Shown here piece after piece: positions 1 through 23,123 of a DNA stretch of 64,000 nt. Below the pieces are notes generated by a model. It did no database searches and was not told where the DNA came from. It was given only the letters and a program-made list of their open reading frames with translations. The DNA lies in assembly GCA_038065555.1 (NCBI GenBank), contig JBBTQS010000004.1, positions 65-64,064 of the forward strand, given 5' to 3'. The DNA comes from Patescibacteria group bacterium. Its GTDB lineage: Bacteria > Patescibacteriota > Patescibacteriia > Magasanikbacterales > JBBTQS01. Every line of letters starts with the position of its first letter. The stretch's first letter is position 1. A program made the position numbers and the translations under genes.

Positions 1-300
1 ACCCCCTACTCGTCATAGCCTTGGTGAGCCATTACCTCACCAACTAGCTGATAAGCCATAGGCCCCTCGCACACCGAAATTCTTTACATGAGAAAGTCAT
101 GCGACCCCTCATGTCCATCGTGTATTAGCGTCTCTTTCGAAACGTTATCCACGAGTGTGCGGTAGGTTACCAATGTGTTACGCACCCGTTTGCCACTAGA
201 CGTTCCCTTGATGTAATCGCAGAAACATCTCGTTCGACTTGCATGCCTCAGCCACGCCGCCATCGTTCGTCCTGAGCTAGGATCAAACTCTCAAATTTGA
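1..300 (-). rRNA. rrs: 16S ribosomal RNA, 5' portion (gene continues past the window start)
   Basis: Reverse complement of ~281-300 reads AGAGTTTGATCCTAGCTCAGGACGAACGATGGCGGCGTGGCTGAGGCATGCAAGTCGAACG, the canonical 16S 5' end. Downstream matches conserved 16S helices. Confidence 0.9.
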
Positions 301-354
301 GAGAATAGATTCTTTCTTGTTTTGATGGTATTTGATTCTCTGTCTGCGACAGGT

Positions 355-480
355 GTCACAGAATTTGTCAACGGACTGGGGGAAGTGTACAAGGACAGCC
401 CTACCCTGTCAAGAGCATGTTCAAACGTACTGTGTATAAGTGACCAAAACCCTGTCAACATTGGATTTTTGTCACGTACA
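355..480 (-). promoter_or_regulatory. putative tandem rRNA promoter/leader region
   Basis: Three TTGACA -35-like boxes on the minus strand upstream of the 16S 5' end (plus-strand tgtcaa at ~365, ~405, ~455). One has a 17-nt spacer to TACACT. Inferred only. Confidence 0.3.
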
Positions 481-503
481 GCGGGGCAAAATTAGCCACG
501 TTC

Positions 504-1034
504 TCACTCCGAATACTTCACGGCTTTGAGCGCGCTGAGGCAGGACTTGGGGATATCGGTCGGTGTGCGCTCTGGCGTGTGCTGAACAACGAGCATTTCA
601 CTGTCAAGAACCAGCTTGACTGCAGTGCGATCGGATGATGCGCCTCGCTGGCTGGATTCCCAAGCAGATTTGCTCATCACATAGTAGCGCACCCAGCTCC
701 CAACCCAGAGATCGGAGCCTGGGACGATGACGTCCAGGCGCATCTGCACCGGTGCCACCTCGTCTCCCACAGTCACGGCAAATACATCTCTGCATTCCTG
801 TGTTGTTACGATTGCAAAGGGATAGGTCGGATCATGGAACAGCACCTCCCCATACACAGGCGCCACAGGAAAGGCAGGATCGCCTTGGACTTCTTCGATG
901 GGAGCCACGACCTCGACTTGTGGCTGGGGTGCAGCAGTGTGCTCATCGCGTTGTTCCAATAATACGTAGGTGATACCCGATCCTGCAGCAAGAATGATGA
1001 TGAACAGGAGCTCAGCGAGCAGTCTCTTTGACAT
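504..1034 (-). CDS. hypothetical membrane-anchored protein (N-terminal TM helix)
   Basis: 176-aa ORF. Start ATG lies 2 nt after the trmD stop (translational coupling). Hydrophobic N-terminus LLAELLFIIILAAG. No recognisable domain; sits where rplS normally is but is not rplS. Confidence 0.55.
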   Translation of the reverse strand: MSKRLLAELLFIIILAAGSGITYVLLEQRDEHTAAPQPQVEVVAPIEEVQGDPAFPVAPVYGEVLFHDPTYPFAIVTTQECRDVFAVTVGDEVAPVQMRLDVIVPGSDLWVGSWVRYYVMSKSAWESSQRGASSDRTAVKLVLDSEMLVVQHTPERTPTDIPKSCLSALKAVKYSE

Positions 1035-1036
1035 AG

Positions 1037-1729
1037 TTATTTCTTGCGTGATTCAGATCGCCACTTGGCAATCGCTGCATGGTTGCCAGAGAGGAGAATC
1101 GCTGGCACTTCCCACGAACCGAACTTCTCTGGACGCGTGTATTGTGGATATTCAGCACCTTGGTCATCATCCCCTTTGCCAAATGTCTCCTGATCAAGCG
1201 ATTCCTGGTTGCCCAGCACCCCAGGAACAAGACGACTCACAGCCTCGATCATGGTGAGCGCTGGGAGCTCGCCGCCAGCGAGGACGAAGTCTCCGATCGA
1301 AACCTCTTCGTCCACGCAGAATTCTGCGACGCGGTGGTCCACGCCTTCGTAGCGACCGCAAACAAAGACAATCCGATCGTACTTCTCTACCCACTCCTCT
1401 GCTACACGCTGAGTGAAAGTGCGACCGCGTGGAGACATGAGGACGGTGTGGGTGCGCTCATCGTGCGTGCCTTCTGCTGCATTGGCCTTGGGAGAGAGCG
1501 CATTGTGCGCAGCAAGCGCGCGATGCCACGGCTCCACACGCATAACCATGCCTGGGCCGCCGCCATAGGGCGAATCATCGACGGTCTGGTGCTTGTCGAT
1601 GGCGTAGTCGCGGAGATTGATCGATTCGATCTTGATCGCGCCTGCTTCTTGGCCGCGGCCGAGAATGCTCTCGTCGGCGTAATTACGGATGAGATCTGGG
1701 AAAATGGTAATGACGGAGAATGTTTTCAT
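1037..1729 (-). CDS. trmD: tRNA (guanine37-N1)-methyltransferase TrmD
   Basis: MKTFSVITIFPDL...SPYGGGPGMVM...VFVCGRYEGVDHRV are diagnostic SPOUT/TrmD motifs. Start chosen at the internal MKTF rather than the ORF-track start. Confidence 0.92.
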   Translation of the reverse strand: MKTFSVITIFPDLIRNYADESILGRGQEAGAIKIESINLRDYAIDKHQTVDDSPYGGGPGMVMRVEPWHRALAAHNALSPKANAAEGTHDERTHTVLMSPRGRTFTQRVAEEWVEKYDRIVFVCGRYEGVDHRVAEFCVDEEVSIGDFVLAGGELPALTMIEAVSRLVPGVLGNQESLDQETFGKGDDDQGAEYPQYTRPEKFGSWEVPAILLSGNHAAIAKWRSESRKK

Positions 1730-1839
1730 ACGTGTGTAGCATACGCTACTAGGTATATTTTGCAAAAAGTAGAAGCCCTCCAACGATGAATCATTGGAGG
1801 GCTTCTGTTAGTTAGAGGCAGTGGATGAAACACCGAACC

Positions 1840-4479
1840 TCATCGGACTGAAGATATCAACTCGTACAGTTCTTGCAGTTGATACCAATGCACTGAACGC
1901 CGTAGCCTTCGCAACGCTCCAGCTTCCATTTGGCGGATTCGTTCTCGAGTGAGATTGAATATGCGTCCAACCTCCTCGAGAGAAAGTGGTTCCTCGCCAC
2001 CCAGCCCGTACCGCAACATGAGGATCTTGGATTGCTTCACAGAGAGAACACTGAAGACCGAACCCAGAAGATCGGAAACGACCTGTGGGAATGTACACTG
2101 AACCATGATCGACTCGGGGTCCTGTTTTAGACCCTCAAGACGTCCACCCAATGCATCCCAGCCGATCTCGACTCCTGCACTCAGTTGCGTCTTATCCCGG
2201 TACATCTCAGTCGTGAGGTGTTCAAGATCTTCCGCACACCATCCCCAGTCTGTCACTCCAGTGACATCCCCATAATTGTGGTTCTTGTAAACTTGGAATG
2301 CCCCCTCAGGAAAGAACCGCGCCATGAAAACGACGTAAGAAATCTTCTCTGCCATTATGCCGCAGTATCGCAGAAGTGTAGCGCCTGTCCCCACGAAGAG
2401 CTCATGTCGGAAGATGACCCACCGAAACTCTTGGTAGAACGGGATTTTGTCCTCGGTAATGTGAGGTGATGAGAGGAGAAGTGTCCGGAGCTGCTCCGTG
2501 TTCTTGGGGTCCAGGGTTGGTCTACCGTAGTACCCTTCGAACACAATCCTCCGCTGTACCGTTACCGACTCGACATTGCCGAACTCCCGATTCTTCGTAG
2601 GCTTTGGCCTTGCTTCGTCGCTCTTCCGCTGTTTTTGCGAACCTATGAGCTCTCCTTGCTCATAGGTCGGCATATTCCAGTCGAAGAGATCAAGCGGAAG
2701 GATAGGCGGCTCCCGCAGCCCCTTCGGAATGATCACGCACACCATCGCCTCCTCCGTACCCCACTTCGTGAGAGGTCGGAAGAACTTCTGAGTAGCGCGC
2801 ACCCACGAACGTACCGGCGCCAGGTCAATGAGCAGTTTGCACCGTGGTGCATTCCACCCCTCGATCAGGACACCGACGTTGATGATCGTGTCAACAACCC
2901 CATCGTCGAACGATCTGAGAATTGTGTCCCGACCTCGGGTTTCGCCGATCACCACCGCCGGCTCAGGTGTTCCAGGAGGACGCCTGAGTTTGAAGTAGTG
3001 AGCGAGATCGCCCGCTTGCTGACGCGTAACACAGCATAACAAGGCACTCTTCTTTCGATTCTCATCCGAGTAGCGACATTGAAGTGCTGCTTCCAGGAAT
3101 GGAACGTCAGACATGATCTTTCCAAGCTCATCCTCATCGTAGCCTTCTTCCCCGATTACTCGAACTGTGGAGGCGTTTCGATCCACCTCCGCAACCCAGA
3201 GTCGCATAGGTGCGACCATTTCGAGTTCGAGAGCTTCCGTAATCGTGATCTCATGGATGAGTCTCTTAAAGTATCGAGCCAACCGTCTTTCGTAGCTGTA
3301 ATTCGGCGTTGCAGTGAAGGCTACTCGAATAGCGAGAATGTGGAAGCCTTGCTTGATCACCTTCTGTCGCGCCACAGTCATACTGGCATGCGCCTCATCG
3401 AAGCAGACCAGCGATGAGCAGGCGAGCTCTGGCGGAAGACAGCCATGCTCGGCAAAAAGATTCTGGAGACTCTGGTAGGTGATGACGTTGATGCCCCACC
3501 AAACCAAACTCTTCTCTGAGTCATAGTAGGCGCCGATAGGAACATTCGGAAGCTGCGCACGCAACTCTCGTACCGTTTGTACCACCAACGCCCGCCGAGG
3601 AACGACGACTGTAGTCATCATCCCCGAACCCATCGCGATCTGCCCCATGAGAACCGTCTTACCGGTTCGAGGTGGCAGGATGATGCGCGCAGTAGGTGTG
3701 TCTGCCTCGTACAACTCCGGATTAGTCGCGACCTCTCTGAGGTACTCAGCAAAGTCGAGGTAAACCCCTATCTGCCGCTCGTAGAGTACACGACTAGACC
3801 CAGGTACCCCCCCACCCTCGAGCATGCCGATCCGATGCGCGGCGCGCATCAACCGGTCAGTCATGGAGAGAGAGGATTGTTCGAATTCCAGGAAGTGTGT
3901 GACTTCACCTTTGTCTTCCAGGACTCCGTCCTCTTCGAGTGTTCTCGGCTTCATCGACGAATAAACCGGCGCTCCGAAGAGCTTTCGGATATTGGCGTCA
4001 TTTCCCGAGTTATGACTCGTCGTGAAGGCGAGTCGAACGGCTCGGAAGTAGTCGATGGCATGTCGGTACTTGAGAACGTTCACTTCCTGCACATCATCAA
4101 TGATGAGGAGAGCGAACGCATCGGGGTTGAATCCGAACATCGTGTGGAGCGACTCCATAGTGGTTAGAAGGATGTCGCAGGAATACACTTCCGGCGCTTC
4201 ACCCTTCCCCACGAAGACGCTGACACCCAGATCACCCACGGACTCGAGCAGTTCCTCGCGGAGTTGATCTAGTGGCGCTTCAGACTCAAAGAGCAAACAC
4301 ACTCGACCTCGTGCAGCTTCGATCCAAAGCCTCAATACGAGACCGTAGACGTAAGTCCTGTCGAGATCGCTGTTGAGGCACAGAGCCTTTTCACGACCCT
4401 CAGCGAAATGAGTCAGAACTGCCTCAGCACACGCCTCCTCCATATCGAATACCATCATTGCATTCTGCTGCATCATCAT
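1840..4479 (-). CDS. SF2 DEAH-box helicase fused to a C-terminal sigma-70 region 4 (HTH) domain
   Basis: Walker A PPRTGKTV, motif II CFDEAH, motif III FTATP, helicase-C block. Extreme C-terminus LMLRYGLGGEEPLSLEEVGRIFNLTRERIRQMEAGALRRLRR matches the sigma-70 r4.2 consensus. GGAGA sits 8 nt before the ATG at 4479. Confidence 0.75.
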   Translation of the reverse strand: MMMQQNAMMVFDMEEACAEAVLTHFAEGREKALCLNSDLDRTYVYGLVLRLWIEAARGRVCLLFESEAPLDQLREELLESVGDLGVSVFVGKGEAPEVYSCDILLTTMESLHTMFGFNPDAFALLIIDDVQEVNVLKYRHAIDYFRAVRLAFTTSHNSGNDANIRKLFGAPVYSSMKPRTLEEDGVLEDKGEVTHFLEFEQSSLSMTDRLMRAAHRIGMLEGGGVPGSSRVLYERQIGVYLDFAEYLREVATNPELYEADTPTARIILPPRTGKTVLMGQIAMGSGMMTTVVVPRRALVVQTVRELRAQLPNVPIGAYYDSEKSLVWWGINVITYQSLQNLFAEHGCLPPELACSSLVCFDEAHASMTVARQKVIKQGFHILAIRVAFTATPNYSYERRLARYFKRLIHEITITEALELEMVAPMRLWVAEVDRNASTVRVIGEEGYDEDELGKIMSDVPFLEAALQCRYSDENRKKSALLCCVTRQQAGDLAHYFKLRRPPGTPEPAVVIGETRGRDTILRSFDDGVVDTIINVGVLIEGWNAPRCKLLIDLAPVRSWVRATQKFFRPLTKWGTEEAMVCVIIPKGLREPPILPLDLFDWNMPTYEQGELIGSQKQRKSDEARPKPTKNREFGNVESVTVQRRIVFEGYYGRPTLDPKNTEQLRTLLLSSPHITEDKIPFYQEFRWVIFRHELFVGTGATLLRYCGIMAEKISYVVFMARFFPEGAFQVYKNHNYGDVTGVTDWGWCAEDLEHLTTEMYRDKTQLSAGVEIGWDALGGRLEGLKQDPESIMVQCTFPQVVSDLLGSVFSVLSVKQSKILMLRYGLGGEEPLSLEEVGRIFNLTRERIRQMEAGALRRLRRSVHWYQLQELYELISSVR

Positions 4480-4652
4480 GATCTTTATCTCCAAGGTTTG
4501 ATCGGAATGAAAAGAGCGGTGCTGGAGAAATCCGAGCACAGTCTTGAAGATAACAAGGCATACTACTAAGGATTTACCAAGTTGTCAATATAGCAAAAGC
4601 CCCAACCACGCGTCGCGCAGTTAGGGCCTCATTGTCTCTGTTGTCACACACG

Positions 4653-5261
4653 TCACCACACCATTTGCTTGCGCAGTTGCCTGATCCTGATGGCGAACGC
4701 CACAAACCCAATGGACAGGATCTGGTGCGCCACGAGCCATGGTGAATGCTGCTCGTACATGAGCCATGCGCAACTCACATGCATGAACACAAGCCACCAG
4801 TATCCACTGATTCGCTGGTGCGCGAGTTGGTAGGTCCCCGCAAGGAACCCAACCACCAATCCGATTTCCAGCCACTGCGTGAACTGTTCCATCACACCAA
4901 GATCACGAAAGCTCAGCGCGATTCCCAAGACAATACAGATGTTGGCGATATGATCGATGAGTCGCGGTGTTGCAACGCGAGTCCCAATCTGCCGCGCAGC
5001 GCGCAGCCCGATCACCATCGATGGCAGAGCGCTGAGCTCAAGGAGCGCAGCAATCCAGTTGCGCCATGAAGCGAATACCACCACCCATGGCAACAAACCA
5101 GCAATGTACGTCCACCAACCCAGCACCAGAGCGCGCGACGCTTCTTGTTGTCGTCGCCGCAACACGAGCCATTCATATCGCGCGAAGAACATCTTGTTGA
5201 GCAGATAGAGTACCCCTCCGATGATCTGCAAAACAAGCGAGACGGTTTCGTTGAGATCCAT
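4653..5261 (-). CDS. polytopic integral membrane protein (possibly PnuC-like transporter; tentative)
   Basis: About six hydrophobic segments rich in Trp. Start at MDLNE, preceded by GGAGGTG with 5-nt spacing. Confidence 0.6.
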   Translation of the reverse strand: MDLNETVSLVLQIIGGVLYLLNKMFFARYEWLVLRRRQQEASRALVLGWWTYIAGLLPWVVVFASWRNWIAALLELSALPSMVIGLRAARQIGTRVATPRLIDHIANICIVLGIALSFRDLGVMEQFTQWLEIGLVVGFLAGTYQLAHQRISGYWWLVFMHVSCAWLMYEQHSPWLVAHQILSIGFVAFAIRIRQLRKQMVW

Positions 5262-5345
5262 GACCACCTCCACAAAATAGAAACCCCCCGACACGCGTTG
5301 CGCATCGAGGGGTACAGAGCCACTGCGCTGTCTTGCGGCGAACGA

Positions 5346-5564
5346 TCAGAAGTCTCTGACCAAATCCGCCCGCACAACCCGCATGACGATGTTGCTGTCG
5401 TGATTGCGCAGTGGGATGAGGTCATAGCTGACCATCGTCCCCGAGGCGCAGTCACGTGCAAAAGGCTCCTGCGACAGTTCGTGTGCCAGTCTGGCAGCAC
5501 GATCTGTCGATTCGTTGTCACGCGCGATCTGCTGCGTGATCACACTCTCGACCTGTTGATCCAT
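5346..5564 (-). CDS. hypothetical small acidic protein
   Basis: 72-aa ORF from MDQQVESV with balanced composition. Overlapping plus-strand ORF looks like antisense junk. Weak. Confidence 0.3.
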   Translation of the reverse strand: MDQQVESVITQQIARDNESTDRAARLAHELSQEPFARDCASGTMVSYDLIPLRNHDSNIVMRVVRADLVRDF

Positions 5565-6008
5565 GGACACCCCCAATTGTCGACGTTCGCCCAACTTCTC
5601 ACGCACAATACGCGAGTCGATGGACGCTGCATCCTACCGTTTGTACCGCCACTTGTCAACTACTCTCCAATGAACAAACCCTCTGCCTGTGAAGACAAAG
5701 GGTTTGCGGTTCGCGAGCAGCGTTCGCTGCTCGGGGTGCTACTTGAGGCCGTTCCCCGCCGGCTGCGGAAGGATCGCAGACATCACCGTGTGCTGCGCCT
5801 GCACCTGTGGCTGCGACGACGGACGTGGCATGGCTAGGCGTTGAAGCCGACTCAGCGGCGCCGTCTCGGGGCACCACACTCCGGGAGGAAGATTCGACGT
5901 GCGATACGTCGAACGGACTATCTGATTCGAAGACACGGTTTTGGTTGATCCTTGCCAGTGTTGATCACCTACCATCACAGACCTTCTGTGAGAAGTGACT
6001 CAGGCAGT

Positions 6009-7415
6009 CTATGCTGGTTGCGCATTTTTGTCAACCGCGCTGTAGACAAATAATATTCCAAGAATCGCAATACCCACAGGATGATTCAAAAAAGGCGAAA
6101 CGAGATGTACAACCACAAGTGCAATCACACTACACACAACCCACGGCTGTGCACCGCGAAATATGAACACGAGGAATCCAACGAAAACCAACACACCGAC
6201 CATCCCGACTTCCATCCACATATCCAACCACCCGAGTTCGAGTGCTGCAGTCGTAAACTGTCCTTGCTCACGCAAGTCCGTACTCTCGTACGTGATCGCC
6301 GTGCCAAATCCAGACCCAAGAATTGGAGCTGACTTGATCTGCGTCCACATTGGTCCTGCTTGCGCCACACGATTTTGCACACCAGGCTCACCTGTAGTGA
6401 AGATTTCTTTTTGAATCGAAGGTGTGCCGCTGTGCAACCACGCAAGCGTCGTGCCCACTCCCATGATAAGCAGCGTGCTCGCGATGACCAGACCAACGAC
6501 AATCATTTTTGTCTTCACAACGACACCGAACTGTTTGCGCACGTACCACAATGCCATGCAACCAAGACCAGCAATCGCACCCAACCAAAAACTTCTAAAT
6601 AATGTAAGCACCACAGTGCTCACAACAATCAGTAGAGCAACGACCGTCCATTTCTGCACTGCGCGCTCACGCACCTGCACTATCAACTGCGCCACCAAAT
6701 ACACCAGGACTGGCAGAAGTATGAGCTGCGGCCACTCGTAGATGCGCCACATCCCGTAGGATGCTGGAGCGATTTGCCCGCCACTGGTCTGTCTCACAAA
6801 ATGATACAAATATGTTGCAACGGCACTCCCCGCTCCTGCAGTGAGCACAAAAATCAACCACGCTTTGGCACACAAGAACACGACACCCGCGCGTACAAGC
6901 GACGACACTTGTGAGAACCACTGCGCACGATGCGCGCGAGTAGCAAGATCGAACACAGGCAATACTGCCGCGAAGTACAGCCAGTTATTTCCGTCAGCAA
7001 GCACACGAGCTATGGGCAGATGCTCAATCCACGCACCATTCACCAATCCCCACATGATTACAGCAAGCATGGCAAGTATTGCGCGCACAGTGCGCTCTCG
7101 CATCAGCGCTGCAACACGTCGCTTGCGCACCACATCAATGATCCACGCCAGCATCACCACACCGAAGAGTCCCATGCGCAACGAAATCACCGCACCACCT
7201 GCATGTAATTCCAGGAGATGCCCATTACCACTCGTGAAGATCTCAGCAATCAGTGCAAGCACTCCATACTCCAACCGACGCAATGCAAGCACAAAGACAG
7301 CAACAACAAGCAGACCACACAAGACAGTCTCCACCTGCGCCGTACGGAAGACGACGAGACTCACGAGCGTGATCGCACTCAACCCAAGCAACCAATTTCG
7401 AAATGTATTGTCCAT
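6009..7415 (-). CDS. O-antigen ligase / Wzy-like polytopic membrane protein
   Basis: 468 aa with more than 10 TM segments and a large loop near the C-terminal third, typical of the Wzy_C/O-antigen ligase family. Confidence 0.6.
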   Translation of the reverse strand: MDNTFRNWLLGLSAITLVSLVVFRTAQVETVLCGLLVVAVFVLALRRLEYGVLALIAEIFTSGNGHLLELHAGGAVISLRMGLFGVVMLAWIIDVVRKRRVAALMRERTVRAILAMLAVIMWGLVNGAWIEHLPIARVLADGNNWLYFAAVLPVFDLATRAHRAQWFSQVSSLVRAGVVFLCAKAWLIFVLTAGAGSAVATYLYHFVRQTSGGQIAPASYGMWRIYEWPQLILLPVLVYLVAQLIVQVRERAVQKWTVVALLIVVSTVVLTLFRSFWLGAIAGLGCMALWYVRKQFGVVVKTKMIVVGLVIASTLLIMGVGTTLAWLHSGTPSIQKEIFTTGEPGVQNRVAQAGPMWTQIKSAPILGSGFGTAITYESTDLREQGQFTTAALELGWLDMWMEVGMVGVLVFVGFLVFIFRGAQPWVVCSVIALVVVHLVSPFLNHPVGIAILGILFVYSAVDKNAQPA

Positions 7416-7472
7416 AACAACAAATGCGCTCGCGGCAAGTATACCGTGAGCGCATTTATATTCGCAACAGAA

Positions 7473-7820
7473 CTAGATAGTGAAATCGTCGATTGCTGAG
7501 GTGTCTACTTCTTCAGGCAATGCGCTAGGCGTCATCTGCTGATCCTGATCGTCAGATTGCTGACGAGGACCACGCGAGCCTTCTGGTTCGTAGATGCGAA
7601 CGTTCACGCGCGCATTGTTCTTCGCACCAACGGTGCGGACAAGGCGGCGGATCGCTTCCGCAGTCTGACCTGAGCGACCGATAACGTACCCCATGTCCGA
7701 AGGGTTCACGTACAGAGTGAGCAACACACCGCGTTCATCGACTTTGCGTTCTACACGAACGTCTGCCGGATTGTTCACGAGTGCTTTGACCAGGTCCTCG
7801 AGGAACTTCTGATCTTCCAT
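7473..7820 (-). CDS. khpA: KH-domain RNA-binding protein (KhpA/YlqC-like) with acidic C-terminal tail
   Basis: MEDQKFLEDLVKALVNNPADVRVE...MGYVIGRSGQTAEAIRRLV is the KhpA KH fold with its GxxG loop. The upstream part of the ORF-track call overlaps a promoter and is excluded. Confidence 0.8.
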   Translation of the reverse strand: MEDQKFLEDLVKALVNNPADVRVERKVDERGVLLTLYVNPSDMGYVIGRSGQTAEAIRRLVRTVGAKNNARVNVRIYEPEGSRGPRQQSDDQDQQMTPSALPEEVDTSAIDDFTI

Positions 7821-7911
7821 AGTGCTTGTTCTACTATTTCGAGAGTGCTTGCCGCGGCTGGCGACCCTTTCAGACCGTGCTGTCTGACACAGCTGCTGGC
7901 AGGCTGTTGCG

Positions 7912-7941
7912 AGTATACCATAGAGGTTTTTTTGCTCGCAA
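7912..7941 (-). promoter_or_regulatory. putative sigma-70 promoter of khpA (TTGCGA ... TGgTATACT extended -10)
   Basis: Minus strand reads ttgcgagcaaaaaaacctctatggtatact about 80 nt upstream of the khpA start. Confidence 0.3.
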
Positions 7942-8104
7942 CAGACGCACAAACACAAACGCTTCGCACAGACGAACGCCCCAAACCCTTTGGGAGCTTC
8001 GTTCGCAAGTCCTCCCCGTAAACTGAGGTCCGGGCTTACTCACGAACTCCCAAAGGGTTTGGGGCTCTCGGTTATACGACGCGTGTACGTGTGCATCGGT
8101 TGCG

Positions 8105-8153
8105 CGTAAAAAAGATGAACCGCTCAGGAAGACGTGTGTCTTCTGAGCGGTTC
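8105..8153 (-). terminator. rho-independent terminator after the lipoprotein gene
   Basis: 16-bp near-perfect stem gaaccgctcaggaagac/gtcttctgagcggttc, followed on the minus strand by a T run. Confidence 0.6.
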
Positions 8154-8217
8154 GGGGATCACGCGGGGTGGGCGCATGGGAGGGATGCGGGGCGCGTGAT
8201 TTTGGAGTCGTGGGTTG

Positions 8218-8835
8218 TCAGGGAATGAGCGTGGGGCTGTCGGCGGTACGTCGGCCGACGAGGACTGGTGTGAAGTTGTCGAACAACTCGTTCTCTGTCA
8301 GCACCATCGAGATGCCGTAGAGACGACCGGCGTACGGCTTGATCTCGACACAGGGTGCGTGCTGACGACCATGCACATCAGTGACAGGAGTTGAAGCGCT
8401 TGTCCAGGCGCAGTACTCGACGCGTGTGATGCCGAACTCCTCCTTTGTGAGATCGAGTTGCACACGTTTGATAGGCGCTGCGTACTCAGACTCCGAGATG
8501 AGCAGCGTGCAGTACTTCTGCGCCTTGGTTACCGCAGTGAAGACCGCCTTCCTTTTCTCCTTCTCATCTGACCACTGAATGGTCACCCTACCGTAGACCG
8601 GAATAGGCAATTCGATCGCATCGTGGACGAGCGCGTCCGACGTTGCGACACACAGCAATGCCTGAAACTCGTGTGACCTTGGTTGGGCGACCTTCTTTGC
8701 CAGCTCCTCGGCCGGTGTCAAAGGGTACTCATCACGGCAGCCCGCGCTAATCGCGAGGATGACGAACGTGATGAGAAGAGCGAAGACGAACGCACCAAAT
8801 CGGTAGTGCGTCTTCATGCTTTTATCGAGTGCCAT
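8218..8835 (-). CDS. secreted/lipoprotein-like hypothetical protein
   Basis: Start MALDK with GAGGA 7 nt upstream. Signal peptide ending ...LAISAGC (lipobox-like). The ORF-track start at 8982 lies inside the predicted promoter. Confidence 0.6.
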   Translation of the reverse strand: MALDKSMKTHYRFGAFVFALLITFVILAISAGCRDEYPLTPAEELAKKVAQPRSHEFQALLCVATSDALVHDAIELPIPVYGRVTIQWSDEKEKRKAVFTAVTKAQKYCTLLISESEYAAPIKRVQLDLTKEEFGITRVEYCAWTSASTPVTDVHGRQHAPCVEIKPYAGRLYGISMVLTENELFDNFTPVLVGRRTADSPTLIP

Positions 8836-8976
8836 GAAAAGATCCTCATGCGCGCTAGTAACCGAGCGCGAACGGTGTAGGACTTCGGCTTGTGGCCGTG
8901 TCTTCAGCAAGTGCTCGAATTTCGAGCGTTTGCTGCAAATACGGAGACGCATCACCATAGCATAGAATTTCGATTT

Positions 8977-9023
8977 TGTCAAGACAAAACGAAACCACCC
9001 AGCGTGTGAGGCCAGGTGGTGCG
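8977..9023 (-). repeat. intergenic cassette copy A: terminator-like hairpin + T tract + TTGACA-17-TATGGT promoter
   Basis: ~47 bp near-identical to 10747-10794. On the minus strand it reads hairpin ccacc...ggtgg, then tttcgtttt, then TTGACA; -10 at 8954-8959. Confidence 0.7.
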
Positions 9024-9044
9024 TTGTGTTGGTCGGATGTCACT

Positions 9045-9932
9045 CTAGAATAATACCTCCACGAACTCATCCGGAACGAACATGCAGATGAGGATGACAA
9101 CCCCCATTATGACAATGAAGCCGATGATCTGACCGATGTTCCCCATGAAGGCTTGCCAACGTGTCGGCGGCATCTTGATCGTCGCAGATGCTGGTGCAGG
9201 TCGAGCAGTCATGTAGGCTGGTCGCGCTGACTCACCTTCAGCGAGATCGCGTTGCATCGACTCGATGATTTCGAACTCCTTGAGGGTGATTCCGAATCGT
9301 TTTTCCAAGACCTGTTCGATGCGATCTTTCATATCGGCAACGACATCAGCATTCTCCGCGAGTTCAAGCGGCGAATCTCTCGAGAAAAACGAACGTATGA
9401 ATCCTCCGCCTTGCTCCTTCGACGCCTTCACGAATGCGTTGTTGACCAATCCCGGTAGAATTCCTTGCTCAAACGGTTGATCATTGCAATCATCAACCAG
9501 CCTTTGCAACTTGGATTCATCGAGATCGTACACTAATTTCACCTTGAGGAAGACAGGTTGCGGCGTCAGCGACTCTGCAAAATCCCCTAGTGGCGTATTC
9601 CTTGTCCAGCGATTTTGTTTGAGCGTGTGACCGAGTGTGGCGAGCTTGCCTTGCTCGATACGAACCACGAACGAACTCGAGATCTCGCCCATCGGCACGA
9701 CGTAGTCTGCGTCGTAGGAGTACCCAGCAAGTGGATGTTCACCAGGCGGCAAGATACGCGCCCTGTTGCCTTCGCCACCGTAGAGCACGATGCGCTCGTT
9801 GGGACCGACCTGACAGCTCGTTGTCTCGACTTGCTCCCACGTCATGTAGAGCGCGATGCCGAGAATCACCGCAACGAAGAGACACACGGAGACCTTCACT
9901 ACCTGTATCTGTTTTCTTGAAGCACTGCTCAC
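9045..9932 (-). CDS. membrane protein with N- and C-terminal TM helices (SPFH/band-7-like, tentative)
   Basis: 295 aa, GTG start with GGAGGGG 6 nt upstream. TM helices at both ends flank a soluble domain. Confidence 0.6.
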   Translation of the reverse strand: MSSASRKQIQVVKVSVCLFVAVILGIALYMTWEQVETTSCQVGPNERIVLYGGEGNRARILPPGEHPLAGYSYDADYVVPMGEISSSFVVRIEQGKLATLGHTLKQNRWTRNTPLGDFAESLTPQPVFLKVKLVYDLDESKLQRLVDDCNDQPFEQGILPGLVNNAFVKASKEQGGGFIRSFFSRDSPLELAENADVVADMKDRIEQVLEKRFGITLKEFEIIESMQRDLAEGESARPAYMTARPAPASATIKMPPTRWQAFMGNIGQIIGFIVIMGVVILICMFVPDEFVEVLF

Positions 9933-9975
9933 GGATCCCCTCCATTGGTGGTTTTGTTGTTCTCACCTGTGCGTC

Positions 9976-10665
9976 TTACGGTTCAGCACTGACGCCCAGG
10001 CTTTCTCCGTTTTCGAGCCGCTCCTCGACCTCCTCACGCAGTGCGGAGCGGCTGAAGGCGTCGATCCCGAGCGATGTGCGCCAGGCCCGGATAGTGTTCC
10101 TCGAGACACCACAGCATCCAGCGATTTCGCTGTCACTGATCTGGCCGAGAAATGGCTCAGCCACCGTTCGCCATTCCGGCCTCTCGTTGTAGGGATACTT
10201 CCCAAACCCTGCCCGTTCGTACGCATTGCGCAGCGTTCCGTAGTGCACGACTGCAGAACGGTGGAGCGATGCGTTCTCCTCCAGCAGCAGCGCCGGTTCC
10301 ATGACGCCTGTGTTACGTAGCGCCTCGAGCACCTGCGATGGGCAGTAGAAGGAGACCTCGATCTGACTCATCGCATTCCGGAAGCTGTGTATGAGTTTTG
10401 CCACGAACCGATGCCGGCAGTGGGTACTCGGACAGGTAGTCTGGATATCTGTCGGACTGTCAGAGAATCCTGCGGCGATTTCTGCTGTGGTCAGCCGACG
10501 ATTACATCCTGGGCACTCACCACGTGGTGAGTACACCTCGCCAGTGAGTGCTTCGACGAGCTCGAGCCGCTTGTCGAAGACTGCTTGTCTGATGGCGAGC
10601 TTCTGCGCCTGTGTCAGTGCGACATGTTGCTCCATCTTCTGCGACGGTACCTGCGATTGACTCAT
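9976..10665 (-). CDS. Cys4 zinc-ribbon + C-terminal HTH protein (putative regulator)
   Basis: Start MSQSQV downstream of predicted promoter copy B. CPGCNRR...CPSTHCRHR cysteine pairs. C-terminal ISDSEIAGCCGVSRNTIRAWRTSLGI is HTH-like. Confidence 0.55.
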   Translation of the reverse strand: MSQSQVPSQKMEQHVALTQAQKLAIRQAVFDKRLELVEALTGEVYSPRGECPGCNRRLTTAEIAAGFSDSPTDIQTTCPSTHCRHRFVAKLIHSFRNAMSQIEVSFYCPSQVLEALRNTGVMEPALLLEENASLHRSAVVHYGTLRNAYERAGFGKYPYNERPEWRTVAEPFLGQISDSEIAGCCGVSRNTIRAWRTSLGIDAFSRSALREEVEERLENGESLGVSAEP

Positions 10666-10746
10666 GCTAAACACGGTGCACCTCTTTCTTGCCACAGTCA
10701 TCATGACTGCTTGGCAAGAGCTCAGAGTATGTGGTTTTTCCTCGTG

Positions 10747-10794
10747 TGTCAAGATAAAACGAAACCACCCAGCGTGTGAAGCCAGGTGGGTGCG
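10747..10794 (-). repeat. intergenic cassette copy B: terminator-like hairpin + TTGACA-17-TACTCT promoter
   Basis: Same 47-bp element as 8977-9023 with 2-3 mismatches, in the same position relative to the gene upstream and downstream. Confidence 0.7.
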
Positions 10795-10825
10795 GGAGAG
10801 ATGGGTTGATGTCTCTCCAACATCG

Positions 10826-11835
10826 TTACGCGACTCGCGGAAAGTCGTACCAGACGCGGCTCCCCCGAGACCCGACATCCTCATACCCGAATCCCACTGC
10901 GCCGATTGCGAGCCCGCCAATTGCCGTGCCATGGACAAGCCCGCCAGGTGTCCAGCTTTCGAGTGGTCGATCTGGGTATACACCGCAGATCTCGCGTGCG
11001 AGGCGTCCGGGAGTAAAACTACTGAAACGAACGACGGTACTATCCGTTCGGCCCTCTACTGCGAATTCGACGGATTTGTAGCCGGCCGCAACTCGCGACC
11101 CTGCGAGGTGAATCAGGAAGAGCGCAAGATCCGTGACTCCTCTGTGAACACCACCAGCGTTGCCGGGTGTGTCCTCCTCCCACAACCCATAGAGCGGGGT
11201 AACGGAAGTGAACAGCTCACTGGACACCACATCGCGAAGTATTGTTTGACACTTGCGATGGGCATAGTAGCCGTTCGTGATTTGCATCGCCATCTCCACG
11301 CTACTCGCCACAGGCACACGGACGGTCGGAGGATCAATCGGTCGATGCTTCTCGATGACTGTATACCCCGTACGCATCTCCAACATGATGAGAACCTGCT
11401 GAAGCGCAGCAGACCCCGGAACTGATGAATCTGGCAGGTCGCGCACCAGTTCTCGCAGGAAGTGAACCTGAGATGCGCCGACCTGGCTAAGTGCACCCGC
11501 ACGAACTGGGTACAGGTCGAAGGGCGGCGGTGTGGCGGCGGTGTGGCGGCCATGGGCTGTAGCACGCGCGTTGCACCGCTCGTGAAGTTAGGATCGTAAT
11601 CCCGGCTCAATTGATACCGCCGTCCGTTCACCTCACGTACGAGATGTTCCGCCTCCTCGCTCTTGATCGCCCCAGCGCTCACTGCACTACTGATCATCCA
11701 GAGCATGTGTCCGGCGTTGTCTGTCTCGCCCACAACCCTGCCGCTTGAATCGAAGAGCACATAGAAGTGCGGTTGTCCGAGGCTACTGTACCTTGCATCC
11801 GTGAAGGTACGAATGGAAGCAGTAGAATGATTCAA
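10826..11835 (-). pseudogene. hypothetical protein gene disrupted by an 11-bp tandem duplication (frames of ORFs 11113-11835 and 10826-11446 rejoin if one repeat unit is removed)
   Basis: Removing one ggcggcggtgt unit at 11525-11546 gives a continuous ~336-aa frame ...LQPMAATPPPFDLYPVRAGALSQV... With the duplication the upstream frame runs into low-quality sequence. Confidence 0.6.
11525..11552. repeat. tandem direct repeat: ggcggcggtgt x2 plus partial third copy
   Basis: Read directly; 11-bp unit, not a multiple of 3. Confidence 0.9.
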
Positions 11836-11934
11836 AGAGCACCTCTCACAAAGTACACAGGTCTTGATCTACACACTGTGTGCAAACCACACGAGACTCT
11901 ACATATGGCATCACGATCTGTCAACAGAAGCAAG

Positions 11935-11980
11935 CAAAACAAAAGACACTCCGCGGTGAAGCGAAGTGTCTTTTGTTTTG
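11935..11980 (-). terminator. hairpin terminator downstream of rpsP
   Basis: Perfect 16-bp stem caaaacaaaagacact/agtgtcttttgttttg. Moderate U-rich tail on the minus strand, stronger T/A tracts on plus; possibly bidirectional. Confidence 0.45.
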
Positions 11981-11989
11981 AAAATATCT

Positions 11990-12313
11990 TTATGCTGCTG
12001 GTGCGTTCGCTGCCTTCTTTGCGATGGCAGTTGCGCGGCGCTTCGTGATGGTGATCGAGCGGACCTTCTTGCCGGTGATGAGTCCCTTGTCGATGAACAT
12101 GTTGCGAAGCGTGTCGGTTGGCTGTGCGCCTACTCCGAGCCAGTACTTCACGCGTTCCTCCTTGAGGGTGATTGCGCTCTCCTTCATGAGCGGGCTGAAA
12201 TGGCCGATGATTTCGTTGGTCGTGCCCCATGGATCGCGGCCCTGTTCCACAACAATAATCCGGTATTCCGGCTGCTTTTTCTTTCCAATGCGTGCGAGCT
12301 TGATTTTGACCAT
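11990..12313 (-). CDS. rpsP: 30S ribosomal protein S16
   Basis: MVKIKLARIGKKKQPEYRIIVVEQGRDPWGTTNEIIGHFSP matches the S16 family. Confidence 0.93.
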   Translation of the reverse strand: MVKIKLARIGKKKQPEYRIIVVEQGRDPWGTTNEIIGHFSPLMKESAITLKEERVKYWLGVGAQPTDTLRNMFIDKGLITGKKVRSITITKRRATAIAKKAANAPAA

Positions 12314-12385
12314 AGAAAATAGGCTTCTTCAGTTCGGGGGTATTCTATATTGGATCCAGAAAAGCGTCAAGAGGCTATACCCAGG

Positions 12386-14650
12386 TTATTTTGCAGCGCG
12401 TGCCATAGCATCCTCGAGCCGCACCGACAGAACACGCGACACGCCGTCCTCGCCCATGGTCACTCCGTAGAGAAGCTGTGCTTGTTCCATGGTGGCGCGG
12501 TTGTGGGTGATGGCGACGAATTGGGTCTGGGTGGCGAGCTCGGCGATAATCGCACCGAATCTCACCGAGTTGCTTTCGTCGAGAGCGGCGTCTACCTCGT
12601 CGAGTACCACAAACGGCGACGGGTTGGTGGAGAGAATGGCGCAGATGAGTGCGACGCTCGTGAGTGCTTTCTCGCCGCCGGAGAGTACGGCAATGTCGGT
12701 GACACGCTTGCCTGGAGGTGAAGCGACAATGTCGATGCCGACGAGCGTCTCGGCGGTTGGATCTACTGCAGAAGCGTCTGTAGGCTCGCCCGATTCCTCA
12801 GATGCATTTGCTTGCTGCTCCTTCGGCGTCTGACGAATTTCAACAATCTCAGCACGGCCGCCGTTGAAGAGTGTCGCGAAGAATCTGCCGAACTCGCGGT
12901 TGATTTGTGCAAAAGCGACGGTACGACGCTTGGTGGTGATTGCGTCGAGCTCTACAATCCCCTTCTCGAGCTGCGCGATCGCGAGATCGAGGTCGCGAAC
13001 TTGTGCGTCGAGGAATTCGTGACGCTCGCGTGTTGTCTCGTACTCCTTCATGACTTCCGGGTCAATCGAGCCGATGAGCTCGAGCTGACGGCGCAGGCGA
13101 TACACATCCTGCTGCAATGCCTGCACGTCGACTGCGCGCGCAATCTCTGGTGGAATGGCTTCGATCTCTGCGCGATACTGGGGCACTTCGCGTGCAATCT
13201 CTTCGAGCAAGGTGTCTCGACGCGTCTCGATGCGCGCGAGATCTACTGCAATTGCACTGGCGCGCTGCTCAGTAGTGTGGAGCTGTTTTTGCTTGTCCTG
13301 TAATTCGCGCTGGAGTGCGAAGAATGCACTCTTCTTCTCCTGCTCTTCGCGACTGACCGATGCGATGCGCTCCTGGAGATGGATTGCTTTTTCTTCGATG
13401 AGTACAAGTGTCTTCTCCAGTTCGGCAATTTCTGCCTGCGCCTTGGTGTCCACAAACGCTGCGGGCTGCTGCTGTGGCGCTGGTTGCTGGAGACGTTCAA
13501 TAAGTGAAGCTACTTTGCCAAGGACACCTTTCACAAATCGCTCGAGAATGGAGAGATCGCGTTCGTTCTGCGCATGCGCCACTTCGTCGCGGATGGCTTC
13601 GAGCTCGGTGATGATTTTGGTGAGCGGCAATGGCGCCCATTTCTGTTGGCTCGTGGCGCGGACCGTTGCAACCTCGATCGCATTCTTGAGACGAATAATT
13701 TCTTCGCGCAATTTGGTGCGCTCGCGGTGCACTGCGTCGTACTCCTGTTGGAGTTGCGAGTAAATGTCGTTCTTGGTCTCATGCACTTCCATAGTGCGCA
13801 ACTGCGCAAACGCAGCATCGTACGCAGTCTGCAATGCCTTTTGCTCAATCGCAATGTGATCACGCTCTACAGACATGCGCGTGAGCTGCTCCTGGATGCG
13901 AACCCACTGACCGCCGTAATATTGGATGTACGCTGTGTGGAGCTCGCTCTCCACTTCGTCACGCTTCTCGAGACGCTTCACTTGGCGTGTGAGACTCTGG
14001 AGACGCGGCTCGATTTCGGAGAGCAGCATGCGGGACTCGTGGAGATTCTCGCGGGTGGCGTTGAGTTTGAGTACAGTCTGGTGACGTTTGATCTGGAATT
14101 CTTTGATACCAGCCGCTTCGTCGAAGAATGATTTGCGCTCTGCTGATGTCGCCATGAGCATGTGATCGATCATGCCTTGGCCAACGACGGTGTAGGACTT
14201 CTCCGCGAAGTGTGCGCGGGCGAGCAGGAGTTGGATGTCGACGAGACGCACGCGCGATCCATTGAGGAGATACTCGCCTTCGCCATCACGATACACACGA
14301 CGAGTGATCGCGATCTCGGAATAATCCATTGGATGATCATCGTCAGACTCCGCAGGTTTGATCGTGCCGTCTTCGTTGTTGAGTGTGAGCGTTACTTCCG
14401 CATACCCCATGCGCGACTTCTTGTCTGAACCACCGAAGATGACGTCTTCGGACTTTTTGCCACGAATAATTTTGAGTGACTGTTCGCCCAACACCCAACG
14501 GATTGCGTCTGCAATATTACTTTTGCCCGAACCATTTGGGCCAACAATGGCAGTCACACCCTGTCGCCCGCCGGTGGGTGGGATGAACTGGATGCGTGTT
14601 TTTGCAGCAAAAGACTTGAACCCTTGGACTTCGATGCTGGACAGATACAT
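12386..14650 (-). CDS. smc: chromosome segregation SMC-family ATPase (short, 754 aa)
   Basis: N-terminal QGFKSF...IVGPNGSGKSNIADAIRWVLGEQS, long coiled coil, C-terminal LSGGEKALTSVALI...VVLDEVDAALDE (signature and Walker B/D-loop). Confidence 0.85.
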   Translation of the reverse strand: MYLSSIEVQGFKSFAAKTRIQFIPPTGGRQGVTAIVGPNGSGKSNIADAIRWVLGEQSLKIIRGKKSEDVIFGGSDKKSRMGYAEVTLTLNNEDGTIKPAESDDDHPMDYSEIAITRRVYRDGEGEYLLNGSRVRLVDIQLLLARAHFAEKSYTVVGQGMIDHMLMATSAERKSFFDEAAGIKEFQIKRHQTVLKLNATRENLHESRMLLSEIEPRLQSLTRQVKRLEKRDEVESELHTAYIQYYGGQWVRIQEQLTRMSVERDHIAIEQKALQTAYDAAFAQLRTMEVHETKNDIYSQLQQEYDAVHRERTKLREEIIRLKNAIEVATVRATSQQKWAPLPLTKIITELEAIRDEVAHAQNERDLSILERFVKGVLGKVASLIERLQQPAPQQQPAAFVDTKAQAEIAELEKTLVLIEEKAIHLQERIASVSREEQEKKSAFFALQRELQDKQKQLHTTEQRASAIAVDLARIETRRDTLLEEIAREVPQYRAEIEAIPPEIARAVDVQALQQDVYRLRRQLELIGSIDPEVMKEYETTRERHEFLDAQVRDLDLAIAQLEKGIVELDAITTKRRTVAFAQINREFGRFFATLFNGGRAEIVEIRQTPKEQQANASEESGEPTDASAVDPTAETLVGIDIVASPPGKRVTDIAVLSGGEKALTSVALICAILSTNPSPFVVLDEVDAALDESNSVRFGAIIAELATQTQFVAITHNRATMEQAQLLYGVTMGEDGVSRVLSVRLEDAMARAAK

Positions 14651-23048: not shown

Positions 23049-23123
23049 GTCGCTATCGTCTAATGGTTAGGACGCTAGGTTTTCATCCTGGAAATCGGGG
23101 TTCAATTCCCCGTAGCGATACCA
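23049..23123 (+). tRNA. tRNA-Glu (anticodon TTC), CCA encoded
   Basis: Hand-folded cloverleaf: acceptor gtcgcta/tagcgat, D stem gtct/ggac, anticodon stem ctagg/cctgg, loop ttTTCat, T loop ttcaatt, 3' acca. Confidence 0.88.

Follow-up and report, generated by a model that had tools for sequence, protein, structure and literature searches.

Three genes of the trmD operon, rpsP (ribosomal protein S16), khpA (KH-domain RNA-binding protein) and trmD (tRNA methyltransferase), lie far apart in a 64,000-nt stretch of DNA from a Patescibacteria group bacterium (contig JBBTQS010000004.1 of assembly GCA_038065555.1; this whole stretch is called the window below). Was an intact operon recently split here by incoming genes, or is the arrangement old? 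The canonical operon is rpsP-rimM-trmD-rplS in Escherichia coli and, downstream of smc-ftsY-ffh, rpsP-khpA(ylqC)-ylqD-rimM-trmD-rplS in Bacillus. In the window, rpsP, khpA and trmD follow each other on one strand (minus) in the canonical order, with gaps of 4169 nt (rpsP-khpA) and 5743 nt (khpA-trmD); rimM and rplS are not in their usual slots. The initial annotation of the locus took the genes in the two gaps for accessory blocks, recently acquired or rearranged. We arrived at another view: the region is, with high probability, the version of the ancient smc-(ftsY-ffh)-rpsP-khpA-rimM-trmD-rplS neighbourhood that is found in the Candidate Phyla Radiation (CPR), altered in layers of differing age. 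The locus combines a lineage-typical architecture with local gene turnover, and this is largely ordinary genome plasticity.

Absence of rimM and rplS beside trmD

Loci for comparison came from a TrmD-based scan of species-representative genomes; among the matches listed, to which all counts in this section refer, 80 loci were considered, 10 of them CPR-labelled (Magasanikiibacteriota, Uhrbacteria, Kerfeldbacteria, Microgenomates, Gracilibacteria, four from Saccharibacteria and one further CPR) and 70 from other bacteria. The usual order in the non-CPR loci is S16-KH-RimM-TrmD-L19 (L19 being the rplS product): S16 and KH are upstream of TrmD in 52 of the 70 loci, RimM adjoins TrmD in 54 and L19 is beside TrmD in 38. 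By comparison, RimM adjoins TrmD in 0 of the 10 CPR-labelled loci, and for L19 the count is again 0 of 10. A recurrent pattern in the CPR is SMC-S16-KH-TrmD (Saccharibacteria, Uhrbacteria, Kerfeldbacteria and other CPR), and in several CPR lineages unrelated open reading frames (ORFs) fill the S16/KH or the KH/TrmD gap. The window matches this backbone, with SMC directly upstream of rpsP, KH next, and trmD without rimM or rplS.

Searches of the window itself agree with the initial annotation, which had recognised neither gene in its usual slot. Using the E. coli and Bacillus subtilis proteins as tblastn queries, we found neither rimM nor rplS in the 64 kb (best E = 0.012); the weak matches to RimM and L19 fall in RadA, in a PD40 protein and in PheT, and were rejected. 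Jackhmmer profiles built on 94 sequence sets, the same that recovered RimM in 54 and L19 in 38 comparison loci, also found neither protein in the 64 kb window.

Two published accounts describe RimM as missing or nearly absent across most CPR genomes (Meheust et al. 2019, PMC6744442; Mol Biol Evol 2025, PMC12641178). Given this, and as no CPR-labelled locus had RimM or L19, the absence of both genes beside trmD is an old lineage trait: it is CPR-wide and was not caused by insertions, so that the connection drawn earlier between the two missing genes and a recent insertion has to be given up. For this part of the proposal, an outcome that the initial annotation had itself named as refuting has thus come about.

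The order rpsP-khpA-trmD is not due to chance, since S16-KH-(RimM)-TrmD recurs in the comparison loci. Identity (confirmed by matches to Pfam, TIGR and NCBIfam profiles, Table 1), strand, order and spacing (4.2 and 5.7 kb) of the three genes were described correctly at the outset, and so was their nature as the remnant of a conserved cluster; this remnant extends further, to SMC upstream. Strong terminators are predicted after rpsP and before trmD.

16S rRNA gene downstream of trmD

In this lineage trmD is followed downstream by the 16S rRNA gene and not by rplS. It comes next after trmD in relatives L010, L012, L098 and L099 and in the window (here with an intervening orphan ORF); in L097 it is found ∼5 kb downstream of trmD. 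In those relatives that have Magasanikbacteria as the closest named TrmD homologues (56-61% TrmD identity) trmD follows rpsL-rpsG-fusA, and in one of them, L098, S16-KH is located 5 kb upstream of trmD. The order in L098 and L099 is rpsL-rpsG-fusA-trmD with 16S directly next and tuf beyond; the 16S gene thus sits inside what elsewhere is the str operon.

The predicted promoter of the 16S gene in the window has CTTGACAG as its -35 box and TGTACACT as its -10 box (scan hexamers TTGACA-17-TACACT), and the promoter region is ∼95% identical between the window and its sister species. An additional TTGACA-type site is seen near it, at ∼440-460. Among the relatives, the 16S rRNA match of L010 (11830-14391) spans 2.56 kb and encloses a LAGLIDADG_2 ORF, because of which we consider this 16S gene to be intron-bearing; in L012 a LAGLIDADG_3 ORF (13310-13996) lies just past the 16S gene.

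Wzy_C gene between khpA and trmD

Relatives at the family level (L008, L010/L011 and L012/L013) share 61-67% TrmD, 59-66% SMC and 62-70% KH identity with the window. In these three, and in the sister species L102/L103, that is, in 4 of 4 relatives spanning the junction, an orthologue of the Wzy_C gene stands between khpA and trmD; its identity to the window protein is 35-45% in the family relatives and 73% in L102/L103. The gene orders are SMC-S16-KH-WzyC-65 aa-TrmD in L008, SMC-S16-(2.4 kb)-KH-WzyC-TrmD in L010/L011 and SMC-S16-193 aa-KH-WzyC-TrmD-171 aa-16S in L012/L013, with an overlap of Wzy_C and trmD by ∼40-55 nt in L010 and L012. Since orthologues fill the khpA-trmD slot in all sampled relatives, Wzy_C belongs to the fixed part of the cluster in this CPR family and is a core gene, not an accessory one. 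Its description as an O-antigen-ligase-like protein was upheld by a Pfam score above threshold (Table 1), and a crude count gave ∼11 hydrophobic segments.

A 37-nt repeat with 70% identity between its copies occurs upstream of the Wzy_C gene (7435-7471) and upstream of khpA (7909-7945) and contains TTGCGA-18-TATACT. This suggests duplicated or shared promoter elements of khpA and Wzy_C.

Variable segments at three junctions

The window represents a population of ultra-small CPR bacteria (Patescibacteria) from the Hainich groundwater well H41. Its S16 protein is present on 12 contigs (the longest listed being of 203 and 394 kb), and the helicase protein of the khpA-trmD gap, described below, is also encoded on an 881 kb NCBI contig. 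Six independent assemblies from different samples were 100% identical to the window over the cluster region, while in a seventh the only differences were a scaffold gap and one base. The cluster region is not an assembly artefact, because six independent assemblies are identical. With all assemblies clonal, population variation could not be used as a test of relaxed selection.

The sister species L102/L103, represented by the 207 kb contig JACCDN010705446.1, was recovered with the Wzy_C alignment; its identity to the window is 92% for SMC, 96% for S16, 91% for KH, 73% for Wzy_C and 87% for TrmD. Collinear blastn intervals between the two species cover window positions 13732-12387, 12349-11996, 8982-8851, 7946-5972, 1745-1059 and 395-1. 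Against the sister, three variable segments, V1, V2 and V3, were delimited (Table 1). The third congener, L101 (S16 92% identical), has S16, a lipoprotein-like gene and then an SPFH-like gene (66% identical), an order that differs from that of the window. As content and order differ among the window, L102/L103 and L101, the slots must turn over within the genus. The junctions of the sister species follow the same terminator-promoter grammar with other sequences. An all-versus-all comparison of the variable-slot proteins, made with a single fast-evolving family in mind, linked only a trio of lipoproteins and a pair formed by the 202-aa membrane protein Mem202.

The synteny comparison proposed with the initial annotation therefore did reveal variable segments at the genus level, with boundaries different from those of the two blocks originally drawn. 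The inserted genes can be called accessory as far as V1 and V3 are absent from the sister and V2 is replaced there; the term does not fit Wzy_C, a core gene, or Mem202, a relocated resident.

Segment V2 and the helicase-sigma4 gene

The sister's counterpart of V2 is a 5.66 kb segment that has, at L102 6375-11077, a 126-aa INT_rpt protein and two tandem genes for superfamily 2 (SF2) helicase-INT_rpt proteins. The Wzy_C/trmD slot held helicase genes before the two species split. The tandem helicases are 70% identical to each other and each ends in four PF14882 integrase-repeat units; such an architecture of helicase plus DNA-binding repeats is unusual.

The window has in V2 a fusion of an SF2 helicase with sigma70 region 4, both parts of which, reported at the start, were supported by profile scores (Table 1). 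Family member P0123 matches this protein with 50% identity over residues 208-894. Residues 25-194 resemble instead, at 33% identity (E = 1e-24), the RecA-like N-terminal half of one INT_rpt helicase of the sister, and the N-terminal part is 34% identical to the other copy by tblastn; P0123 showed no similarity to this sister-like N-terminal stretch. Within residues 25-194 neither motif is intact: Walker A reads DLDRT in place of GLGKT, and DDVQ stands where the DEAH box should be. Judged from these alignments, the helicase-sigma4 protein is a chimera, and its structure points to replacement in place, in which the 5' part of a resident helicase gene was left fused to the newcomer.

The helicase-sigma4 family has ∼40 protein clusters, distributed sporadically in the CPR and in Myxococcota; the homologues are always single genes in unrelated housekeeping contexts, and no relatives of the fusion were found in a scan of viral contigs. 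Scans of every block protein against PADLOC and PHROG yielded nothing beyond partial helicase and sigma4 matches. PADLOC gave partial matches to the sigma4 region of MzaA (1.2e-11), to a type IV restriction endonuclease helicase core and to PbeA; PHROG matches, partial as well, were to DNA helicase (1.6e-31) and to a phage sigma factor (3.4e-11). In tetranucleotide composition this gene alone is an outlier (0.298 versus 0.198 ± 0.027), the strongest for its length in the window. In the Uhrbacteria contig L095 a homologue is adjoined by a pair of bAvd and reverse transcriptase genes (8083-9466) that looks like a diversity-generating retroelement; further along, past the S21 and YqeY genes, large proteins with T4SS_pilin and Big domains are encoded.

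Two small ORFs, one of 86 aa at 5346-5606, separate the Wzy_C gene from the gene for Mem202. The Mem202 protein is 45% identical to the product of a gene of L008 (631-1242, minus strand). As that orthologue is located upstream of SMC in L008, Mem202 is a relocated gene of the lineage, not an import.

Segment V1 between rpsP and khpA

Homology to the congener L101 stops at 11936, the last base of the hairpin that follows rpsP, and homology to the sister L102 stops inside rpsP, at 11996, six bases short of the gene's end. In the sister ∼720 nt with one small ORF take the place of V1. No homologues of the V1 genes were found in the loci of distant relatives L008-L013; the 295-aa SPFH-like gene and the lipoprotein gene do have homologues in congener L101.

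The first gene of V1 after rpsP carries an 11-nt tandem duplication (2.5 copies, 100% matches, at 11523-11550, as identified by TRF), and deletion of one copy in silico gives a single continuous ORF of 332 aa, in line with its earlier description as a duplication-disrupted gene. The duplication is identical across independent assemblies, hence the orphan gene is a fixed pseudogene. Its C-terminal part had no homologue among 1.84 billion representative proteins.

The next two genes are bracketed by the copies of a 43-nt direct repeat, each of which combines a terminator hairpin with a T-run and a TTGACA (-35) box. The copies are 95% identical and are the only two in the window, where none (0) would be expected; the lower copy coincides with the V1 breakpoint. 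A cassette of this junction has thus been duplicated around the pair of genes for the Zn-ribbon/helix-turn-helix (HTH) protein and the SPFH-like protein. The start of the Zn-ribbon/HTH gene was set below the terminator-promoter cassette; a gene call for the 229-aa form exists in L005/L006. The initial annotation of this protein gained some support on the HTH side (HTH_23, weak).

For the 295-aa protein we found no Band_7 or other Pfam or NCBIfam match, even at E ≤ 1, so that its early designation as SPFH-like lacks a sequence-profile match and stands on the predicted structure. The AlphaFold (AF2) model, built from a three-sequence alignment, has a moderate pLDDT of 67. Its first 11 Foldseek matches in the Protein Data Bank (PDB) are all SPFH proteins (stomatin with 1.3e-4, prohibitin, erlin), the top 30 are mostly SPFH, including flotillin and HflK/C, and the rest are vault proteins; the TM-score to the isolated SPFH domain of stomatin is ∼0.6. 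Among 5.8 billion proteins, just two further clusters belong to this family. In another CPR genome, L100, the homologue is located after rpsG-fusA (S7, EF-G).

The lipoprotein, whose lipobox (Table 1) bears out its assignment, evolves fast: it is 35% identical to the product of a 201-aa gene of L102 and 31% to that of a 219-aa gene of L101, compared with 87-96% for core proteins. The near-perfect hairpin of ∼160 nt that comes next has a folding energy of -94.6 kcal/mol (shuffled sequences -55 ± 4, z = -9.4); it occurs once in the window and is not aligned in the sister species. The hairpin had no Rfam match, and a permissive Rfam search over 300-12500 gave nothing credible. Candidate explanations are an insulating terminator, a palindromic insertion and a structured RNA.

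Segment V3

The initial annotation had assigned the rplS position to a transmembrane (TM)-anchored protein of the window. In this lineage that position is held by the 16S rRNA gene, and the ORF in question is contained in a 0.66 kb insert. No homologue of the ORF at 504-1034 was found in any relative locus compared. At the position of V3 the sister species has 67 nt only, because of which its trmD abuts the conserved rRNA promoter. By the alignment, the ORF is a species-specific insert placed before this promoter.

Composition and transcription signals

Most of the genes that separate the anchors are orphans and belong to no Pfam, PHROG or PADLOC family. A compositional contrast of the blocks with their flanks, expected with the initial proposal, was not seen: G+C content at third codon positions (GC3) is 0.60-0.68 in block genes and 0.59-0.71 in trmD, khpA, SMC and rpsP, and the tetranucleotide distances of V1 and V2 are in the 92nd-93rd percentile of windows of the same length. 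Foreign origin by composition, a candidate explanation, was tested and was not significant for either block. There was no integrase or transposase among the Pfam, PHROG and PADLOC results for the locus, and the nearest tRNA gene is at 23049. We found no direct repeats at the borders of V2 or V3; the 43-nt repeat brackets just the Zn-ribbon/HTH-SPFH pair.

A consensus scan of the locus detected 18 promoter-like sites, with 8.9 ± 2.7 expected. The minus strand carries all of the seven best sites (TTGACA or TTGACG, 17 nt, TAnnnT), with predicted -10 boxes at 12342, 11896, 8954, 6006, 5631, 4560 and 384. Six of the seven are intergenic, upstream of rpsP, the pseudogene, the lipoprotein gene, the 86-aa ORF, the helicase gene and the 16S rRNA gene; the remaining site (6034-6006) overlaps the final codons of Wzy_C and is upstream of the other small ORF. 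The site of rpsP reads TTGACG-17-TAGAAT (12370-12342). Predicted hairpin terminators follow rpsP (hairpin at 11935), the SPFH gene (8994), the small-ORF unit (5283) and the helicase gene (1771). Often the terminator and the -35 box merge into one compact junction, and predicted terminator-promoter junctions are located at most segment boundaries.

Table 1. Coordinates of anchor genes, variable segments and other features of the locus (window positions)
Feature	Position	Strand	Evidence or remark
16S rRNA promoter and 5' end of 16S gene	1-412 (gene starts 298)	-	Rfam SSU_rRNA 215 bits; promoter-like site
Variable segment V3	396-1058	-	absent from sister species (blastn); 0.66 kb
Orphan TM-anchored ORF, 176 aa, inside V3	504-1034	-	open reading frame
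trmD, tRNA (m1G37) methyltransferase	1037-1729	-	NF000648 TrmD equivalog 277.8 bits (cut-off 220)
Variable segment V2	1746-5971	-	replaced by other genes in sister species
Predicted terminator, 16-bp stem, after helicase gene	1771-1806	-	42 nt upstream of trmD start
SF2 helicase-sigma70 region 4 fusion, 899-aa ORF (called as 879 aa)	1840-4539	-	ResIII 53.8 bits, Sigma70_r4 49.2 bits
Membrane protein Mem202, 202 aa, 4 hydrophobic segments	4653-5261	-	open reading frame
Wzy_C (O-antigen-ligase-like) polytopic membrane protein	6009-7415	-	Pfam Wzy_C (PF04932) 37.7 bits (threshold 31.7)
khpA-type KH-domain RNA-binding protein gene	7473-7820	-	PF13083 KH_KhpA-B 1.2e-21
Near-perfect hairpin, ∼160 nt, between lipoprotein gene and khpA promoter	7945-8100	-	folding energy
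Fast-evolving lipoprotein, 205 aa	8218-8835	-	lipobox LAISAGC; common to genus
43-nt direct repeat, copy 1	8977-9019	-	V1 boundary; sister homology resumes at 8982
Variable segment V1	8983-11995	-	absent from sister species (blastn collinearity)
Putative SPFH-fold protein, 295 aa, hydrophobic segments at both ends	9045-9932	-	AlphaFold model and Foldseek
Zn-ribbon/HTH protein, 229-aa form	9976-10665	-	HTH_23 E = 1e-3, phrog_664 DNA-binding protein E = 1.2e-3, both weak
43-nt direct repeat, copy 2	10747-10789	-	upstream of Zn-ribbon/HTH gene
Frameshifted orphan gene, 332 aa when repaired	10826-11835	-	frameshift from 11-nt unit in 2.5 copies (11523-11550)
Predicted intrinsic terminator, 20-bp stem, directly after rpsP	11935-11980	-	hairpin prediction
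rpsP, ribosomal protein S16	11990-12313	-	Pfam Ribosomal_S16 3e-17; TIGR00002 77.7 bits (cut-off 45.3)
SMC-like ATPase, 754 aa, conserved neighbour upstream of rpsP	12386-14650	-	Pfam SMC_N 1.3e-62

SMC-like ATPase upstream of rpsP

Orthologues of the SMC gene are located directly upstream of S16 in L008, L010 and L012 (59-66% identity) and in the sister species (92%). The 754-aa protein of the window has no SMC_hinge match in Pfam. We observed that the protein is just 751-758 aa long, with the hinge match absent, across the family (window, L008, L010 and L012); relative L098 has an SMC protein of >1000 aa with a hinge. To judge from these lengths and domains, the family's protein may be a shortened condensin-type ATPase.

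Layers of change and alternative explanations

Of the layered history that we favour, the data show the synteny layers and the exact breakpoints against the sister species, as well as the native composition, the pseudogene, the duplication of the junction cassette and the chimeric nature of the helicase. The oldest layer, CPR-wide, is the loss of rimM together with the separation of rplS from trmD, after which the backbone SMC-S16-KH-TrmD remained. A layer at the class level has trmD directly upstream of the 16S rRNA gene, and at the family level a Wzy_C-type gene became fixed between khpA and trmD. At the level of genus and species three boundaries between transcription units, rpsP/khpA, Wzy_C/trmD and trmD/16S promoter, would serve as permissive slots, for small modules that have their own promoter and terminator and encode mostly orphan membrane-anchored or DNA-binding proteins; in these slots modules would be acquired, reshuffled, exchanged for others and left to decay. 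By their predicted terminators and promoters the units would be expressed independently, and insertions would then be tolerated; the modules may enter by recombination at terminator-promoter junctions.

The initial reading supposes a recent split of an intact rpsP-khpA-rimM-trmD-rplS operon by two blocks that came in by horizontal transfer and displaced rimM and rplS; it is in our opinion very improbable. One would cite for it that most of the intervening genes are orphans with no family in Pfam, PHROG or PADLOC, that V1 and V3 are missing from the sister species and that the helicase gene is a tetranucleotide outlier; however, neither rimM nor rplS is at this locus in any sampled CPR and the absence of RimM is published, Wzy_C keeps its slot family-wide, the V2 slot is occupied in the sister too, the composition of the blocks is native, and integrase, transposase and flanking tRNA are lacking. 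A chimeric contig, the product of faulty assembly or binning, has a practically negligible chance: six assemblies from different samples are 100% identical and the backbone is common to the sister species, to set against nothing more than the derivation of the sequence from metagenome assemblies. A defence or mobile-element hotspot at the Wzy_C/trmD slot, perhaps also at rpsP/khpA, with the helicases as mutually replacing anti-phage or selfish genes, is unlikely, yet it does account for several observations: the partial PADLOC (MzaA sigma4, type IV restriction endonuclease helicase core, PbeA) and PHROG matches, the rapid swap of fusions of a helicase with DNA-binding parts at one site, the 70% identical tandem of the sister with its integrase-repeat units, and the sporadic helicase-sigma4 family in the CPR and Myxococcota. 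What speaks against it is that no known system is complete (MzaA reaches 68 bits versus a cut-off of 800), that nuclease, methylase and partner genes are not present and no integrase is nearby, that the homologues are single genes in housekeeping neighbourhoods, and that no relatives were found in viral contigs.

Functional co-location, with Wzy_C and perhaps the SPFH and lipoprotein genes co-regulated with the translation and growth genes khpA and trmD, seems to us a weaker candidate than a hotspot. The overlap of Wzy_C with trmD in L010 and L012, its conservation at 35-73% identity, the 37-nt promoter-region repeat common to khpA and Wzy_C and the position of the SPFH homologue of L100 beside translation genes, after S7 and EF-G, speak for it; against it are the envelope genes of V1, whose position and order change from one congener to another, the presence of a pseudogene in V1 and the 4-6 kb of inserted DNA that the genus tolerates between Wzy_C and trmD. 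More doubtful still, though less so than a recent split, is the thought that the junctions are nurseries of orphan genes, or that in this family the envelope protein Wzy_C has taken on a function in the khpA-trmD unit, at the place that rimM has in other bacteria. If the nursery idea were true, junctions by highly expressed translation genes of this genus would be where orphans with expression signals already supplied arise or are captured, shuffle and die, with the frameshifted ORF without a homologue, the duplicated junction cassette and the chimeric helicase-sigma4 gene as examples.

Several points weigh against the layered history. Promoters and terminators are consensus predictions only, and trmD has no site that passes the scan; by eye one finds TTTGCA-17-TATGCT (8 of 12 matches, ∼1769-1741). 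The helicase gene may be foreign in origin. The 80 listed comparison loci represent diverse bacteria (TrmD 41-50% identity) and missed close relatives, while the close relatives are few, four to five lineages recovered via two proteins. The search for rplS in this genome covered the 64 kb window.

The new content of this analysis is limited to the small plasticity slots, the lineage markers and the chimeric helicase, the absence of RimM being already published. Three small hypervariable slots are mapped to the base in a translation-gene neighbourhood that is otherwise conserved. The fixation of Wzy_C between khpA and trmD, together with trmD beside 16S rRNA, provides a lineage marker, and the chimeric helicase-sigma4 protein is a clear example of what gene replacement would lead to. 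All of these could be starting points for work on the turnover of orphan genes in ultra-small bacteria. Two cautions for annotation follow: a trmD operon without rimM and rplS is in the CPR the normal ancestral state and not a sign of recent insertion, and a gene found between conserved anchors, such as Wzy_C, can be an old core gene.

Comparison with known systems

The locus shares with the canonical trmD operon the order and strand of rpsP, khpA and trmD, and the SMC-type gene upstream is as in the Bacillus-type supercluster. It differs in having no rimM, rplS, ffh or ftsY. The upstream neighbour of trmD is the helicase gene here (Wzy_C in relatives) instead of rimM, the downstream side has an orphan ORF and then the 16S rRNA gene instead of rplS, and a Wzy_C gene is fixed between khpA and trmD. 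The units appear, by prediction, separately terminated and promoted and not to form one operon.

Absence of RimM is what the locus has in common with the reduced ribosome-biogenesis set of the CPR, so far as the available parts of PMC6744442 and PMC12641178 describe it; these parts deal with presence and absence of genes and do not describe the Wzy_C insertion, the trmD-16S linkage or the three slots. The likeness of the helicase fusion to MzaA, a sigma-70 family protein of the MZA anti-phage system, is in the C-terminal sigma70 region 4, for which MzaA models give the best alignment (NCBIfam 6.3e-19; PADLOC 1.2e-11). The match covers ∼70 residues with 68 bits versus 800, the remainder is SF2 helicase, and MZA partner genes are not present.

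With a horizontally acquired island the locus shares that V1 and V3 are absent from the sister species and V2 is replaced there (Wzy_C is present in all relatives); it differs in composition and mobility genes. As to flanking repeats, it has the 43-nt repeat around the Zn-ribbon/HTH-SPFH pair, itself a terminator-promoter cassette, and none that is island-wide. Flexible genomic islets, or plasticity zones at conserved intergenic junctions, likewise have fixed flanks, content varying among congeners, orphans, pseudogenisation and replacement in place. The slots described here differ from islets in being very small (0.7-4.2 kb), of native composition and free of integrase, tRNA and transposase; their boundaries fall at predicted terminator-promoter cassettes, and one such cassette occurs on both sides of a two-gene module.

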